Assembly: GCA_036504035.1 (NCBI GenBank)
Contig: DASXVV010000006.1
Coordinates: 270,133-334,132 of the forward strand
Length of the DNA: 64,000 nucleotides
Direction: 5' to 3'
Source: Candidatus Deferrimicrobiaceae bacterium
GTDB taxonomy: Bacteria > Desulfobacterota > Deferrimicrobia > Deferrimicrobiales > Deferrimicrobiaceae
Position 1 is the first letter of the stretch. Every line of letters begins with the position of its first letter. The notes below the pieces were generated by a model. That model was not told the DNA's origin. It worked only from the letters and a program-made list of their open reading frames with translations, and made no database searches. The position numbers were made by a program, and so were the translations under genes. Of the stretch, positions 3,104-54,911 are shown in pieces.

Positions 3104-3901
3104 TCATCGGACGAGATGCATTTCCTTCAGGCATTTTTCGATCAACACAAATCCCATGCCGGAGAACTTGTCCTTGAAGACGGCCGCGTTGTCCGCGAAC
3201 ACGCGCTTCGGGTCTCCGACATTCACGTAGTCGTAGTTCCGGGTCCGGCCGATGACCTTCCCGGTCTTTCCGTCCACCAACTTCGTCGTGACCTGCAGCA
3301 ACAGGTCGGTCCACATCAGCTCGTAATTGATGATCCCGATTTCCAGGAATGCATCGGGCTTCGCCCCCTCTTCACCAGGCGCCGCCTCCCGGGCATCCGC
3401 GTTGTACCAAGCGCGCAGCGGGGCATACCAGTTTTCCATCAGCGCCGTCGTTCTTCGGTCCACGATTCCCGGCAGCATCCGGACGCCAGGCCTCAACCGG
3501 GTTTCGCACCCGCCCTGCCCGTTCAACCGGTCTGTCGCGCGCTTCGCCAGGATCTCCGTAGGGATCCAGGCCTCCCCCTTCGCGAGGATCTCCTGGTAAC
3601 TTTCCGACCGGGTCTTCGCCGTGTGCAGCTCCTCGGGCAGTTTCACCAGAATCACGATCCCGTAGAGGAGGCCGAGCCCCCCGCCCCCGGGACCGGAAGC
3701 GCCCGACAGGAGCGACAATCCCCCGGACTGGAAATAGTCCCCCGTGACGGTCAGCGGCGGAGGCTCGATGGCGACGACTTCGATCGAGCGGATTTGCGAG
3801 AGGCGTTCCTTCGGGGGTATCACCTGCAAGGAGACGCAGCCCGACAGCGAAAAGACGAGCCCCCCGATCAGCAGCGAAATCGACACGGCCCCAGCTCTCA
3901 T
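3104..3901 (-). CDS. Hypothetical lipoprotein
   Basis: MRAGAVSISLLIGGLVFSLSGC lipobox signal peptide; a Gly-rich segment follows. No family recognised. Confidence 0.45.
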   Translation of the reverse strand: MRAGAVSISLLIGGLVFSLSGCVSLQVIPPKERLSQIRSIEVVAIEPPPLTVTGDYFQSGGLSLLSGASGPGGGGLGLLYGIVILVKLPEELHTAKTRSESYQEILAKGEAWIPTEILAKRATDRLNGQGGCETRLRPGVRMLPGIVDRRTTALMENWYAPLRAWYNADAREAAPGEEGAKPDAFLEIGIINYELMWTDLLLQVTTKLVDGKTGKVIGRTRNYDYVNVGDPKRVFADNAAVFKDKFSGMGFVLIEKCLKEMHLVR

Positions 3902-3924: not shown

Positions 3925-4614
3925 TCAGAACAGGCTTCCCACCACGGGATCCTGCCGCCGGACGCACTCCTCGCCCTCGGCCGCCGGACTGTTTACGAGC
4001 GTCGAGACGGGATAAGACTCCATCGCTTCGGCGGGGAACGGCGCCATCAGCGCGACCAGCTCCGCGGAAACGGCGGCGGTCGTGTCGAGCCAGAGGGCAT
4101 AATCGGCGGAAGGGATGATCACGGGCATCCGGTCATGGATGGGCGCCATCAAGGCGTTCGCGCCTGTCGTGAGGATCGCGAACGATTCGATCTCGCTGCC
4201 GTCCGCCCCCATCCATCCGTCCCAGATCGCGGCCAGCCCGAACAGCCCGCCGCCCTTGGGACGCACGAAATACGGCCGCTTCCCGTTGCCTTGCTTTTTC
4301 CACTCGAAGAAGCCGCTGGACGGGATCAGGCAGCGGTGGTGACGGAAGGGGCCGCGGAACGACGGCTTCTCGGCGATGCTCTCGGCGCGCGCGTTGATCG
4401 GACGGTTGGCGTGCAGCGGGTCCTTCGTCCAGTAGGGGACGAGCCCCCAATCGAGATGGGTGAACTCCCGGACCCCGGCAAGCCCCCGGCGCAAGACGAG
4501 CACGGGCTGGGACGGAGCGATGTTGTAGCGCGGCGCCATCGGAAAGCCGATGGTCGCCTCGAACTGTTGTTCCAGGGCGTATTCGGAATCGAAGAGCGCG
4601 AATCGTCCGCACAT
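3925..4614 (-). CDS. yedK: SOS-response-associated peptidase (SRAP / YedK / HMCES, DUF159)
   Basis: Begins MCGRFA; Cys2 is the catalytic residue used for the abasic-site DNA-protein crosslink. ~229 aa, the usual SRAP length. Confidence 0.8.
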   Translation of the reverse strand: MCGRFALFDSEYALEQQFEATIGFPMAPRYNIAPSQPVLVLRRGLAGVREFTHLDWGLVPYWTKDPLHANRPINARAESIAEKPSFRGPFRHHRCLIPSSGFFEWKKQGNGKRPYFVRPKGGGLFGLAAIWDGWMGADGSEIESFAILTTGANALMAPIHDRMPVIIPSADYALWLDTTAAVSAELVALMAPFPAEAMESYPVSTLVNSPAAEGEECVRRQDPVVGSLF

Positions 4615-4615
4615 G

Positions 4616-5068
4616 TCAAACGACCACCATGCAAATCCAGTCATTATTTTCATAGGCGTTTTCCATATAATCCGCCAAGCCCATCAGCATTTTGGAAATA
4701 CTGCCCTTTGCCTTGATGAATTCATTGATGGTTTTTGGCGATCGGTCAAAATGAAAATCAATGACTTTCAAAATATCGTTGCCTGTGCACCCGAGGACAT
4801 TTTCCGCTGCCTCTCGCAAATTATCCACAATGGTCCTGCCCTTGGTCCTTGAAATATGATTGATTTCGCTGCGGATATATTTCTTGAAATGTTTCTTGAC
4901 GATTCCTTCGATGACGACGAATGAATCCTCGTTTATGAATATTGAACTTTTACCCCAATCCTTGTCCGAATATCTTCCCGTCCCGATTTCTATATAGTTG
5001 GTCTCTTGCAATTTGGGTCTGTCCGAGTGTATCGCGTAGTTCCGGTCCACGATTCGCTTTGTTCTCAT
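4616..5068 (-). CDS. Hypothetical protein, AT-rich orphan (150 aa)
   Basis: MRTKRIVDRNYAIHSDRPKLQETNYIEIG...; GC content is far below the surrounding ~70%. Its stop lies 1 nt from the SRAP ATG. No recognisable domain. Confidence 0.5.
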   Translation of the reverse strand: MRTKRIVDRNYAIHSDRPKLQETNYIEIGTGRYSDKDWGKSSIFINEDSFVVIEGIVKKHFKKYIRSEINHISRTKGRTIVDNLREAAENVLGCTGNDILKVIDFHFDRSPKTINEFIKAKGSISKMLMGLADYMENAYENNDWICMVVV

Positions 5069-5256
5069 AAGTGTCCCTTATTTAAAATGTCGTTGCCGTG
5101 AAAATCTGGTCCGGCATCTGATCCCCCACCAACCCATTCCTGACGATCCCTCTGGTCAAATTACCGAAGAATGCGGGCCATGTCACGCGACGGACAGCCG
5201 ATTTGCTGGCGCGCTTCCCCGGCTCGTGCTGAAATAACCGGAGCGGAGGGCCCCCC

Positions 5257-6936: not shown

Positions 6937-7368
6937 CTATTCCGATTCCATGAACTGCCGGGGGGTATAGATCCGGAGCTGCCGCAGCGATCCGGGAAAC
7001 GTTCGCGGGTCGATTTCGAGTAGGTCTTTATCGCCGGTCATAAGGATATCGGCGCCAACGGCTCCGCAAAGGGAAAGATACGCGTCGTCCTTCGGGTCGC
7101 GGCACAACGACAGCTTTTCCGGAACCTCGACCATCCGACAGTGTCCGAACAGCGCTTTCCACAAGCCGGCGAGCTTTCCGGCGCGTTCGTGGCCGAACCG
7201 GCCGACAAGCTTTTCGACCGTCTTTTCGATTTTGCGGGCCGTATCCACGGACAAATAGACGGTACCGATCGCAAACGCCTTCCGAACAGCATCCAGCGGT
7301 ATACCCCCGTACGCGGCCGAAACGTAAACATTCGCGTCGAGAACAATCCGGAGACGGGATTCAGCCAT
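6937..7368 (-). CDS. PIN-domain toxin (VapC-like) of a type II toxin-antitoxin pair
   Basis: IVLDANVYVSAA...LMTGDKDLL, with PIN-type acidic residues. It overlaps the upstream Phd/YefM gene by 8 nt. Confidence 0.6.
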   Translation of the reverse strand: MAESRLRIVLDANVYVSAAYGGIPLDAVRKAFAIGTVYLSVDTARKIEKTVEKLVGRFGHERAGKLAGLWKALFGHCRMVEVPEKLSLCRDPKDDAYLSLCGAVGADILMTGDKDLLEIDPRTFPGSLRQLRIYTPRQFMESE

Positions 7369-7612
7369 AGATCGTCTTGCCGGCCCGCTTCAGAACCTTG
7401 AGCGCCTCGTCCTTCGTGATGCCGGATTCGCCCAGAATCATGCCGATGCCGAGCAGGAGATCTTCGGGCGACCCTTCCGGAACCGGAACGACGCGCGCGA
7501 TCGGTTTGCCATGCCGCGTGACGACGACTTCCTCCTCGCTCGCCAGCACACCCGTCAACTGCTCCTTGAACTCCCTGACTCCCATGAACCGAATCCCGGC
7601 CGCTTTGCTCAT
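7361..7612 (-). CDS. Phd/YefM-family antitoxin
   Basis: 83 aa, MSKAAGIRFMGVREFKEQLTGVL...VVVTRHGKPIARVVP, the Phd/YefM N-terminal signature. Confidence 0.7.
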   Translation of the reverse strand: MSKAAGIRFMGVREFKEQLTGVLASEEEVVVTRHGKPIARVVPVPEGSPEDLLLGIGMILGESGITKDEALKVLKRAGKTIYG

Positions 7613-8099
7613 CGTGTTCCCCCCATTGAGCCCACTTTACATGACAATGATCCCACATAAGAGGAACATCATCAACCGGGTTGCCGTGTTCGCAATTATC
7701 GGCCGATGTCTTCCAATATTTTCTTCATGTCCCGCAGGAAAACTTCGGCGTACTCTTCCCCGTGATAGGGGCTGTCGTCTTCCATCGCATATTGCGCACG
7801 ATAAATAGCATTCCATCAGTTCGAGAGCGGATTTACCTGAATGTCGAATCGGAGGATGACGACGTCTTTCCCGTCGTTCGAAGCGACCAACTCATACTCG
7901 CCGGCCACATCGACCACGAACGGCGTCACGGTCAGATTGATGTAACCTTCGTCTTCCCCCATCGGCCGGGGGGTCGGCACGTCGCCGCCCATGAGCACCT
8001 TGCCTTCGACATGGCGGATCGACAGGTGAACCGCATCGGAGAATGGCCCGAATCTTGTCCTCCCTCTGTCGAAATCGAATACACGGAGAAGGGCAGAAA

Positions 8100-8708
8100 A
8101 TGGAAACGGGAAACGACCTGGTTCTCATCATGCGAAAAATCGTGGTCATTCGCGGACATCGCGTCATGGTCGATGCCGATCTCGCCGAACTGTACGGTGT
8201 CCCGACATTCCGACTAAATGAAGCAGTCAAACGGAATCCGGACCGGTTTCCGGACGACTTCATGTTGCAGTTGACCATTGATGAACACGCGGCTTTGACA
8301 TCGCAAATTGCGATGTCAAAGCCCGGGCGTGGAGGACGGAGAACATTGCCTTACGTTTTCACCGAGCAAGGTGTCGCGATGCTGTCGAGCGTCCTCAGGA
8401 CCGACCGCGCCGTCCAGGTCAATATCGCCATCATGAGAGCATTCGTCGCGGTCCGTCAAACGTTGGCCACCAATCGTTCACTCGCGCGAAAACTCGAAGA
8501 CCTCGAGCGAAAATACGATGCCCGGTTCAAGATTGTCTTCGACGCCATCCGCGCACTCATGACTTCGCCCGACCCGCCTTCCCGCAAGATCGGGTTTTCA
8601 ATATCGCCGCGTCGGTCAACAGCCCGGTGTGTCACGCGACTTCGGAAATGCCGACCGGATCGTCGAATCGTCAGCCGCTGCTGCCGCCCTTCGTCGCCAT
8701 CTCCTTGA
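8100..8708 (+). CDS. ORF6N (KilA-N-like) domain protein
   Basis: [43 protein letters not shown] matches the ORF6N consensus. METGND is chosen as the start. Confidence 0.6.
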
Positions 8709-52091: not shown

Positions 52092-54911
52092 ATGAGTTTC
52101 GGATTGAAAAGAGGACTTCTTAAGTTGTTTCTTGCGGTGATCGGCGTTGCCGTCTTGTCCTCGGCCGCCTTCCCGGCAGGCTTTTCCACACAATACCGCT
52201 ACGACGAGTTGAACCGCCTCCACCAAGTGGTGTATGGCGACGGCTCCATAATCGAGTATGCCTACGATAACGTCGGCAACCGGACCGTAAAAAGACCCCC
52301 TCTGCCTCCGCAGGTCACCTCCCTGACGGCCACGCCCGCTACGGGGAGCTATCCGCTGCCTGTGACGCTTACCGCCGTCGCATCGGCTCCCGGCGGCTCG
52401 ATCGCGAGCTACGCTTTCGATTTCGGAGACGGATCCTCCATTGTCAGCGGGAGTTCCCCGAACGCGTCTCACACATACATCGCAGCGGGCAGCTATACCG
52501 CCAAAGTGACGGTAACGGACAATTGGGGCGCCACGGCGTTCCGAACGACCCCCGTTTCGGTCACGATGTCGAACCTCCCCCCGACGATCAGTTCATTTGT
52601 TGCAACGCCTTCCTCGGGAGTCTATCCGCTGGTGGTCGTTTTCACCGTAGCGGCTTCCGATCCGGACGGGTCCATCGCCTCCGTGCAATGGGACTTCAAC
52701 GGGGACAATACGGTTGACCAGACCACCACGGGGTTGACCGTCTCCCACACCTACACGTCGTCTGGCAGTTACACGGCCAAGGTCCGGGTGATCGACAACC
52801 TGGGCGCGTCGTCCGCATCCTCCTCGGTACCCATCACGGCGACAACCGCGAACCATCCCCCGGTGGTGAGCAACTTCACGGCAACCCCGACCGACGGCGA
52901 CGCCCCGCTGACGGTCAATTTCCAGCTCACAGCGACCGATCCGGAAGCCGCGGGCAACGTCCGGGTCGACTGGAACTACACTGGCGCCCTGGACGGGAAC
53001 GGCAACTACATCGTCAACAAGACGGAGACCAGGGCGAGCGGGTCTACCTTCACGGCATCCAACCTGTATTCGACAGCGGGCAGCTTTACGACCCGAGCGA
53101 TCGTGACCGATGCTTCCGGCATCGTCACCGTGGTTCCCCAGACCATCACGGTGTACGCCACGCCTCATGCGCCGCGAGCCACCCTGACCGGCTACCCGAC
53201 GACGGGAACCCATCCGCACCTGATCAATTTCACGGCCGCCGCGGCGTTGGCCCCGGGTCGGACCGTCACCAAGGTGGACTGGGATTTCGACGGCAACGGA
53301 ACTACGGATTCCACGACCACCGGCCTTACCACCACGTACACATTCAATTCTCCTGGATCCCGCACCACGCGGGCGACGGTTACCGACAGCACGGGCCAGA
53401 CCAGCACTGCCACTCTCTACTCGGTCACCTATCCCGCCAATTCCCAGCCGAGCATCACGTCGCTTACGGCCACGCCGACTTCCGGCTACCCGCCGTTGCC
53501 GGTCACCTTCACCGTGGCGGCTTCGGATTCGGATGGGACGATCGATCACGTGGACTGGGACTTCGACGGCAACGGCATCTTCGATGCGCAGACCCAAGGC
53601 CTTTCGACCACGTATATCTACAAAACGCCCGGGACCTATACGGTCAAGGCACAGGTCGTCGACAACTGGAGCGGCAAGACCCATCAGACCATCAAGATCA
53701 CCGTCAGCTCCGGAAACCCGACGGTGACCGCCTTTACAGCGACGCCATCCAGCGGGTTCGCGCCGCTGACGACGATCCTCCAACTCGCCGTGACGTACGG
53801 AAGCGGCGCTTCCCTGTCGAAAGTCGATTGGGATTTCGACGGCAACGGGACCGTGGACCGCACCACGACGACGCTGTCCACCAGCTACACTTACAGCGGC
53901 GTCGGGAAGTTCGTCCCGACCGCCAAGATCTACGACACGAAAGGCCGGATCACCACAGCGGTCTTTGCGTCTTACGTGGACGGCAAACCGGTCGTGCCGA
54001 TCATCAACGCGGTCACCATCACGCCGTCGACTTCGGGAATCACGCCGTATCCGGTGACCTTTACGCTCAACGCCTCCCCGTCGGCCGGTTCTCCATCCGG
54101 CACGACGATCGCCCGGGCGGAATGGGACTTTAACGGCGACAACACGGTGGACCAGACCACGACAGCCCTGTCCGTTTCCCACACCTACACTTCGGCCGGC
54201 TACTACCCGGGCCGGGTCCGGGTCTTTGACAACAACGGTATCGCCTCGGCCTACAGCGATATCCCGATCCGTACGGCTGCTCCGAACACGCCGCCCACGA
54301 TCCAATCCGTCGCCGTGACGTTCCCGGCCGAGAAGTTCGCGCCGGTTTCCCCGACGGCCATCGTGACGGCCTATGCACCGGGCAAGACGATCGTTCGGTA
54401 CGACTGGGACCAAAACGGAGACGGGATCGTCGACTTCTTCACCACCACCGCAGGGCCGGTCACGCTCAGCTACAACACGCCGGGAACCTACAACCTGACG
54501 GTCACGGCCGTCGACAGCGACGGACTCTCCTCGCAATTCGTCCAGCCCGTGCAGGTTTTGGCAGGTCCGGTGATCAAGGCATCCGTTGCCTATGTGGGCA
54601 GTTACAGCAGTTCGGTCCGGGAATACCGTGTGGTCCTGACCAACGTAGGGACCGGAACCGGGACTGCGGTGATTGCCACCGACATGACGGCCACCGTTGC
54701 CGCCGGGACAGGAACGACCAGCACGGCTTTCCCGATCCTCAATCCGCCACTTGGCCTGCGGGACATTCCGGTCGGGACGAATGCGTTGATCAAGTTTTTC
54801 CTCAATTCGTCCTCGACGGTCACCCAGGTCAACTTGGGAGTGGGCGGGACCCTGAAGAATGCGGATGGAGTGAACGGCACTTTCAGCAAGTCTGTCATCA
54901 CGAACAAGTAG
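52092..54911 (+). CDS. Secreted PKD-repeat protein (939 aa, about 8-9 PKD/Ig-like domains) with an N-terminal YD-repeat pair
   Basis: Signal peptide, then YRYDELNRLHQVVYGDGSIIEYAYDNVGNRTV. Repeated blocks of the form [ATPxSGxxPLxVxF...DPDGSIxSxxWDFxGDG...HTYxxxGxYTAKVxVxDNxG]. Confidence 0.8.
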   Translation: MSFGLKRGLLKLFLAVIGVAVLSSAAFPAGFSTQYRYDELNRLHQVVYGDGSIIEYAYDNVGNRTVKRPPLPPQVTSLTATPATGSYPLPVTLTAVASAPGGSIASYAFDFGDGSSIVSGSSPNASHTYIAAGSYTAKVTVTDNWGATAFRTTPVSVTMSNLPPTISSFVATPSSGVYPLVVVFTVAASDPDGSIASVQWDFNGDNTVDQTTTGLTVSHTYTSSGSYTAKVRVIDNLGASSASSSVPITATTANHPPVVSNFTATPTDGDAPLTVNFQLTATDPEAAGNVRVDWNYTGALDGNGNYIVNKTETRASGSTFTASNLYSTAGSFTTRAIVTDASGIVTVVPQTITVYATPHAPRATLTGYPTTGTHPHLINFTAAAALAPGRTVTKVDWDFDGNGTTDSTTTGLTTTYTFNSPGSRTTRATVTDSTGQTSTATLYSVTYPANSQPSITSLTATPTSGYPPLPVTFTVAASDSDGTIDHVDWDFDGNGIFDAQTQGLSTTYIYKTPGTYTVKAQVVDNWSGKTHQTIKITVSSGNPTVTAFTATPSSGFAPLTTILQLAVTYGSGASLSKVDWDFDGNGTVDRTTTTLSTSYTYSGVGKFVPTAKIYDTKGRITTAVFASYVDGKPVVPIINAVTITPSTSGITPYPVTFTLNASPSAGSPSGTTIARAEWDFNGDNTVDQTTTALSVSHTYTSAGYYPGRVRVFDNNGIASAYSDIPIRTAAPNTPPTIQSVAVTFPAEKFAPVSPTAIVTAYAPGKTIVRYDWDQNGDGIVDFFTTTAGPVTLSYNTPGTYNLTVTAVDSDGLSSQFVQPVQVLAGPVIKASVAYVGSYSSSVREYRVVLTNVGTGTGTAVIATDMTATVAAGTGTTSTAFPILNPPLGLRDIPVGTNALIKFFLNSSSTVTQVNLGVGGTLKNADGVNGTFSKSVITNK

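Follow-up and report, generated by a model that had tools for sequence, protein, structure and literature searches.

The 64,000-nucleotide stretch analyzed here (termed the window; positions 270,133 to 334,132 of contig DASXVV010000006.1 from a Candidatus Deferrimicrobiaceae bacterium) carries on its minus strand an AT-rich gene of 150 codons (4616-5068), which we refer to as the orphan. Its stop codon lies one nucleotide from the start codon of a gene for an SRAP/YedK-type peptidase. The orphan was acquired horizontally, belongs to a small, mobile and unannotated family of alpha+beta proteins of ~145 aa, and is located between the presumed divergent promoters and the SRAP gene. We give about an even chance to the reading that it is a functional, polymorphic-toxin immunity-like gene that became the leading gene of the SRAP operon in a single narrow lineage. 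The cytoplasmic protein would bind and neutralize an incoming toxin delivered by a competitor, probably a nuclease, with no cognate toxin gene alongside.

The GC content of the orphan was found to be 0.424 compared to 0.640 for the window (453-nt windows, standard deviation 0.069), i.e., about three standard deviations low. This agrees with the original prediction, in which an AT-rich open reading frame (ORF) of 150 codons at this position was proposed to be of foreign origin. The GC content fell below 0.50 in just three regions across the 64-kb window, the orphan included. All three codon positions are depressed in the orphan, with values of 0.40, 0.32, and 0.55 for positions 1, 2, and 3 (GC1, GC2, and GC3) compared to 0.64, 0.49, and 0.86 for the SRAP gene and 0.71, 0.46, and 0.92 for the divergent threonine dehydratase gene. 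The ~90 nucleotides upstream of the orphan had also been predicted to be AT-rich. In a fine GC profile this held for approximately 5069-5100 (0.38-0.42), but not for 5100-5180, where the GC content was intermediate (0.55-0.57). The 5' boundary of the AT-rich island is gradual. Among 13 sequence-distinct contexts measured, the gene of the orphan family was 4-22 GC points below the surrounding DNA in 12; the exception, a Priestia plasmid copy, equals its surroundings. This pattern suggests repeated transfer out of an AT-rich pool. Together, the low GC3, the low GC content across contexts and the family members carried by phages and plasmids (see below) support a foreign origin of the orphan.

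The original prediction further held that the orphan and the SRAP gene may form an uncharacterized two-gene module. We searched all six-frame ORFs within ±5 kb of 80 SRAP loci from species-representative genomes with the hidden Markov model (HMM) of the orphan family, and none of these 80 loci in other genomes contained a family member. Four of the five non-identical clusters of close homologues were found in other neighborhoods, with beta-lactamase-like, PRiA4-like or toxin-antitoxin genes as neighbors. In loci L003, L004, and L009 the orphan homologue follows a beta-lactamase-family gene and precedes genes for small secreted proteins, in L005, L006, and L007 it follows a PRiA4_ORF3-like gene and precedes other secreted-protein genes, and in L008 it is located amid VapBC and PemK toxin-antitoxin genes; none of these loci carries SRAP. 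Four distant members reside in unrelated contexts: one after an ANTAR response regulator gene, one with a CoA-transferase gene on one side and an HMGL-like lyase gene on the other, one beside a MazE-like gene and one in the vicinity of a GNAT/ATP-grasp gene. Altogether, neither SRAP nor a common partner was seen in the other contexts of the family, which comprise 13 sequence-distinct loci plus five records of phages or plasmids. The orphan and SRAP were neighbors in the window, in an identical contig from SRR11794808, in a 25-kb Logan contig and in the metagenomic contig L002 (see below), all of which represent one site in one narrow lineage. Because the homologues elsewhere are unlinked to SRAP, the proposed module is unsupported, and we rejected it on the basis of the co-occurrence tests and the homologue contexts.

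Six clusters of close orphan homologues were identified, with identities of 55-100%. The pairwise ratio of non-synonymous to synonymous substitution rates (dN/dS) was 0.10-0.28 across the six homologues, with 0.105 for the alleles of the window and L002 and 0.13-0.28 for the other pairs. Judged from these substitution patterns, the orphan is a real gene under purifying selection. The public annotation, HEY3488981.1, is a 144-aa version of the orphan that starts at a GTG. We favor the ATG at 5068, which results in 150 aa, because the N-terminal M-R...R residues are kept in all close homologues. The structure prediction proposed along with the original prediction was carried out using AlphaFold2 (AF2) and an alignment of 61 sequences. 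The resulting model is a compact alpha+beta domain of high confidence (predicted local distance difference test, pLDDT, 93.3; predicted template modeling score, pTM, 0.88). No membrane helix was predicted in the model, and the window protein had no match above noise in Pfam, NCBIfam, PHROGs or PADLOC, so that the prediction of a protein devoid of transmembrane segments and recognizable motifs was borne out. The other 60 aligned members were likewise without matches above noise in Pfam, NCBIfam, and PHROGs.

HMMER, run exhaustively over 1.84 billion representatives, identified 86 relatives at E<1e-3, nearly all of which are 140-150 aa long. The family includes proteins of Paenisporosarcina antarctica (WP_134207938.1) and Seinonella peptonophila (WP_073155095.1), as well as P0209, which is encoded on a 63-kb JGI contig. 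This flags a small family of 86 representative clusters that is unrecognized by the curated libraries used, and that is a candidate for inclusion in catalogs of immunity proteins. A G-T-x-Y-x-E-I-x-P-G-K-Y...W motif at the N-terminus and an I-L-G strand at the C-terminus are shared across the family. Of the residues in the 12-sequence A2 alignment, W29 is invariant and Y16 nearly so; the window protein carries Y25, E27, and W38. Most of the family is acidic, with a median isoelectric point (pI) of 5.0, whereas the clade of the window protein is basic (pI 8.3-8.9, with 8.8 as a single value), except for the L002 copy with a pI of 6.9. Two members carry N-terminal extensions: P0047 (262 aa) has an HTH_17 (excisionase/MerR-like) domain and P0032 (248 aa) an acidic domain of ~100 aa without a family match. 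Such fusions are rare, and might hint at function. P0034 (1,385 aa, nine "stretches") was discarded as a low-complexity coiled-coil false positive.

By use of tblastn, true family members (bit scores of 135 and 108 against the family HMM) were found in the Bacillus phages SPbetaL5 and SPbetaL1 and in five mobilizable Priestia plasmids. Downstream of the SPbetaL5 integrase gene, the order is SUKH, a Colicin-DNase/WHH toxin, an SNase-Excalibur protein (encoded on the opposite strand), a SunI-like bPH protein, the family member (gene 50), SUKH, an LXG-LHH toxin, SUKH_5, SUKH_6, and GNAT. Judged by its predicted domains, the locus is a textbook example of mixed polyimmunity and toxin genes. The arrangement in SPbetaL1 is co-linear, as judged solely from gene order and sizes, but the SunI-like gene is absent. 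In both phages the family gene is one gene away from the LXG-LHH toxin gene and three genes away from the WHH toxin gene. It is interleaved with SUKH/SMI1-KNR4 and SunI-like genes of the kind found in the polyimmunity yok region of SPbeta-type prophages, and shares their orientation and approximate size. However, the family has no sequence or profile relationship to the SUKH and bPH domains, and its predicted fold differs from theirs. All genes of the SPbetaL5 island (L110; OQ921345.1, 22268-30158) were deposited as "hypothetical protein"; Pfam scans name their domains, with SUKH found four times.

One family member, P0073 from Seinonella peptonophila, is named "Immunity protein 70" in UniRef. 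Imm70 is an alpha+beta family with conserved tyrosine and tryptophan residues, partnered with Tox-REase-10 nucleases (Zhang et al., 2012, PMC3482391), and PF15601, the Imm70 family, is one of the motifs listed for the products of genes downstream of LXG toxin genes in Bacillus subtilis (Kobayashi, 2021, PMC8321402). The orphan family resembles Imm70 in combining a small, cytoplasmic alpha+beta domain (AF2 model) with a conserved tyrosine and tryptophan (the Y..E...W motif), which by itself is a weak criterion. Further likenesses are the one member named in UniRef, the scattered distribution with genes that are often toxin-less "orphans", and the phage member in a polyimmunity locus with LXG and WHH toxins. 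The acidity of the wider family is also in line with an immunity role. On the other hand, the basic window clade is without the YDHY motif seen in the wider family, and no gene for Tox-REase-10 or another toxin adjoins the orphan in the window or its homologues in the close clade. Pfam at E≤1 gave no Imm70 match for P0073 or for the family members from phages and plasmids. Because the Pfam scan returned no Imm70, this label rests on a single third-party name. We describe the orphan protein as "immunity-like", with middling confidence, rather than assigning it to Imm70.

The recent history of the site was assessed from L002, a 1,963-nt JGI metagenomic contig (3300069939), which represents the same genomic site in a related strain. 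The orphan alleles of the window and L002 share 82% DNA identity and 79% protein identity, while the SRAP fragment of L002 is 98.9% identical to that of the window at the DNA level and begins exactly at the base before the ATG. It is at this base that the identity jumps from 82% to 98.9%. Between the window and L002, the synonymous divergence (dS) of the orphan was 1.02, compared to 0.046 for SRAP. The histories of the two genes thus differ, and they represent a clean case of unequal evolutionary depth across a start codon.

The order of genes at the site also differs between the two. In L002 the orphan and SRAP are set apart by a 65-aa gene (1458-1655) and by a 33-nt leader that contains a GGAGG ribosome-binding site. 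This leader is absent from the window. Because of this intervening gene and separate ribosome-binding site, the 1-nt coupling is not conserved even at the same site. The 65-aa gene product aligns with the C-terminal half of a glycine-zipper membrane protein of 87-93 aa, the gene of which is located a few genes downstream of the orphan homologue in L003 (1814-2077) and L005 (1524-1805). L002 also carries an AT-rich gene for an RsgA-like GTPase (GC content 0.40) upstream of its orphan allele. The 65-aa remnant and the GTPase gene suggest that a larger AT-rich island was whittled down, of which the window would retain ~0.5 kb. L002 represents either a variable island that is polymorphic among strains or a chimeric assembly. 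Three loci that otherwise differ (L002, L003, and L005) encode the glycine-zipper protein downstream of a close orphan homologue, and this protein may be a true partner of the orphan clade. In L003 and L005, genes for unrelated small secreted proteins are located between the orphan homologue and the glycine-zipper gene. The window contains no homologue of the glycine-zipper protein.

The tight junction in the window could have arisen as follows. DNA that was once located between the orphan and SRAP, including the ribosome-binding site of SRAP itself, would have been lost in the window strain, while the same space in L002 would hold the remnant of the glycine-zipper gene. With the intervening DNA gone, the orphan stop codon would come to lie one base from the SRAP ATG. 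SRAP would presumably be transcribed from signals upstream of the orphan and translated either by coupling or from a GGTGG motif in the 3' end of the orphan. This Shine-Dalgarno-like motif is found within the last orphan codons, 9 nt before the SRAP ATG, and could act as a substitute ribosome-binding site. A promoter scan of the region between the orphan and the dehydratase gene returned no sigma-70 consensus promoter, and no Rfam family matched within the intergenic region. An accidental junction, as suggested by the gene arrangement in L002, the unequal dS values and the 80 SRAP loci without a family member, is part of the reading to which we give about an even chance. If that reading is correct, it represents a fairly ordinary outcome of horizontal transfer in which the orphan took over the expression signals of a housekeeping operon. 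It raises no new question for SRAP biology, and it would be a warning that tight gene junctions are not evidence of functional modules.

The orphan was also found in a sister strain represented by the 25-kb (25,262-nt) Logan contig, with identities to the window of 148/150 residues for the orphan, 228/229 for SRAP, 396/402 for the dehydratase and 94/102 for glutaredoxin. The near-identity across the flanking genes indicates that the orphan is co-inherited with its flanks in the immediate sub-lineage. This contig had been considered as a possible empty site, which was rejected because it carries the orphan too (P0208). A search of metagenome contigs for exact copies of a 26-nt sequence from the 5' end of SRAP gave no matches; searches with the close-clade alignment against metagenome contigs and with the orphan against genome contigs retrieved no relatives.

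Several observations speak against an immunity-like gene with this history. The phage copies of the family gene are located amid immunity genes and not directly downstream of a toxin gene, while the Priestia plasmid copies are isolated genes with no adjacent toxin. A toxin gene adjoining the orphan was absent in the window and beside all close homologues, and none was adjacent to the family gene in the four contexts of distant members. None of the 61 aligned members matched Imm70 in Pfam, whether the threshold was E≤0.1 or was relaxed as far as E≤10, the presence of the PF15601 model in the library used being unconfirmed. The basic charge of the window clade compared to the acidic family may reflect a different partner or role. 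Foldseek searches with the AF2 model gave only weak fold matches, with no E-value below 0.26 and template modeling (TM) scores of at most 0.51. The deletion history depends on the single 1,963-nt contig L002, which could be chimeric, and an empty site was not found among the contigs searched.

The same data bear on other explanations. The orphan protein could be an inhibitor derived from a phage or another mobile genetic element, either a DNA mimic resembling DMP12 or an anti-defense protein that binds a host nucleic-acid-binding protein. This would agree with the acidic character of most of the family, with the one member that has an N-terminal HTH fusion, and with the family members carried by temperate SPbeta-like phages and by plasmids. 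Strong acidity is a feature of DNA mimics. All but one member of the window clade are basic, and the charge of this clade is not DNA-like, which disfavors the DNA-mimic reading for it. DMP12 (PDB 3w1o) reached a TM score of at most 0.49 to the orphan, with no significant Foldseek match and no DMP12 Pfam match in the family, and PADLOC and PHROGs gave no functional match. Only 2 of 50,697 phage records carried the family, and no member was found in the IMG/VR viral contigs, where the searches gave a spurious match of 22 residues or none. We consider an inhibitor of this kind unlikely. The other folds retrieved were YfbM (DUF1877, PDB 1ryl) and the N-terminal domain of DapD (PDB 3r5a), both at an E-value of at least 0.26 and a TM score of at most 0.51. 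Membership of DUF1877/YfbM was rejected: there was no PF08974 match, and hhalign of the family profile to E. coli YfbM gave a probability of 0.5%, a figure with no diverse YfbM profile behind it as the homologue search for YfbM returned near-identical Escherichia proteins only.

A neutral or decaying passenger, i.e., a functionless remnant of the larger AT-rich island with a junction left behind by a tolerated deletion, would fit the island in L002 (RsgA-like GTPase gene, orphan and truncated small membrane protein gene), the resemblance of its 65-aa gene to a 3' remnant, and the ~0.5 kb of AT-rich DNA kept in the window. The orphan ORF is however intact and of full length, its dN/dS ratios are low in the window-L002 pair as well as in the other pairs, and the sister strain differs at 2 of 150 residues with no disruption. 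We regard a passenger as very unlikely.

The basic window clade might instead have been neofunctionalized into a small nucleic-acid-binding or regulatory protein that acts on the co-directional genes downstream. These would be the SRAP operon in the window and genes for secreted or membrane proteins in loci L003 and L005. The charge reversal, the conserved K/R-rich segment (KRHFKKY...INNISRTKGR), the basic N-terminus and the HTH fusion of a distant member are compatible with such a role, as is the position of the clade gene, which always leads a tight co-directional set whose genes overlap or are 1-17 nt apart. Against it, no DNA-binding fold or motif was detected, and the downstream genes vary between loci. 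The probability that the clade took on this role is, in our view, low.

It is also conceivable that the junction is adaptive, with the immunity protein and SRAP being co-expressed against DNA-damaging toxins. These may be deaminases, glycosylases or nucleases that make abasic sites, which SRAP shields. Taken jointly with the separate proposal that the family is an uncurated cross-phylum mobile immunity or inhibitor family with a retargeted basic clade, this is highly improbable. The main novelty that remains is the uncurated family, together with the small chance of adaptive co-expression. The two-gene module, whose orphan would regulate, target or complement SRAP in DNA-damage tolerance or defense, is given the slightest of chances: the TGA-c-ATG junction implies co-expression, the orphan adjoins SRAP in every related strain seen and a basic protein is compatible with nucleic-acid binding, but all SRAP-linked cases are from one site in a narrow lineage, SRAP is missing from the other family contexts and the family from the 80 other SRAP loci, and L002 has an intervening gene, an independent ribosome-binding site and discordant dS values.

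Table 1. Features of the orphan-SRAP region and of other accessory DNA in the window.
Feature	Position	Strand	Evidence
Orphan gene, 150 aa; candidate immunity-like alpha+beta protein, acquired horizontally	4616..5068	-	ORF, GC, dN/dS, AF2 model
Intergenic region of 188 nt between the orphan and the divergent threonine ammonia-lyase gene; presumably holds promoters	5069..5256	.	GC profile
Imperfect 13-nt direct repeat (11/13), upstream copy CATGTCACGCGAC	5179..5191	.	Repeat search
13-nt direct repeat, second copy CATGTCAAACGAC, spans the orphan-SRAP junction	4612..4624	.	Repeat search
Junction TGA-c-ATG: orphan stop 4618-4616, spacer c 4615, SRAP ATG 4614-4612	4612..4618	-	Read from sequence
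SRAP/YedK-type peptidase gene, 229 aa, Cys2; core gene of host composition	3925..4614	-	Pfam PF02586; GC 0.66; GC3 0.86
265-aa gene without Pfam family, next in the cluster, 23 nt downstream of SRAP	3104..3901	-	Gene calls
PIN_3 toxin gene	6937-7368	-	
83-aa antitoxin-like gene, overlaps the PIN_3 gene	7361-7612	-	
ORF6N-domain (phage antirepressor-like) gene and several tiny ORFs	~7600-8500		
RHS/YD-repeat polymorphic toxin gene, 1,644 aa	46070-51004	+	PDB Rhs proteins (7q97, 1.6e-65)
Low-GC patch, 5' part of the RHS gene and upstream	46221-46751		GC minimum 0.40
AT-rich 331-aa ORF, candidate cognate immunity gene of the RHS toxin	50967-51962	+	N-terminal hydrophobic segment
939-aa YD and PKD-like repeat protein gene	52092-54911	+	

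The SRAP gene product matched the Pfam family SRAP over all of its profile positions (1-214/214) with an E-value of 3.5e-71 and 239.6 bits (cut-off 27.1). It starts with MCGRF, which places the catalytic cysteine at position 2 and confirms the originally predicted junction of the orphan with an SRAP gene of this type, and it carries the conserved INAR, FFEW, and IHDRMP segments. A longer SRAP ORF from 4653 was rejected since it would bury Cys2. The NCBI name of the product is SOS response-associated peptidase (HEY3488980.1). We found nothing unusual in the SRAP gene itself, the nearest relatives of which are ~50% identical among species-representative genomes. The orphan heads a co-directional and closely spaced cluster comprising SRAP, the 265-aa gene, DUF1003, MFS, Usp, LrgA, and LrgB, with the threonine ammonia-lyase gene (HEY3488982) oriented divergently.

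The 13-nt direct repeat brackets the AT-rich island. A repeat of this quality was equaled in 65 of 2000 shuffles, so that it is marginal, and it was chosen post hoc. It could be an insertion microhomology or due to chance, and is probably due to chance. As an insertion signature we rejected it, because it is marginal and is contradicted by the differing SRAP leader in L002. No convincing terminal inverted repeats were found around the island, and neither a flanking terminator nor an att site was found around the orphan. There was no tRNA gene within 50 kb, and no integrase was called among the flanking genes. Like phage "morons" and orphan accessory genes that seize the expression of a host operon, the orphan is a lone AT-rich gene that has an upstream region of its own and is inserted where a promoter region meets the leading gene of the operon. 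It differs from them in that a flanking terminator, an att site, terminal inverted repeats and an integrase were not found, with only the marginal repeat present.

The other two regions with a GC content below 0.50 are both associated with the RHS toxin gene. The core homology of the RHS protein stops near residue 1480-1490, and the C-terminal ~165 residues are without a sequence relative in PDB. This C-terminal tip and the downstream 331-aa ORF are located in the most AT-rich island of the window, where the GC content goes down to 0.33, and are followed by the gene for the 939-aa repeat protein. The genome therefore does acquire AT-rich cassettes of toxin and immunity genes, in keeping with the nature proposed for the orphan. 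The third low-GC patch encodes the N-terminal ~230 residues of the RHS protein. This suggests that the N-terminal trafficking region is a swapped module, like the C-terminal tip.

A second accessory patch, ~2 kb from the orphan, is formed by the PIN_3 toxin gene, the antitoxin-like gene that it overlaps, and the ORF6N-domain gene with several tiny ORFs beside the pair. The GC content of this patch is 0.51-0.58.

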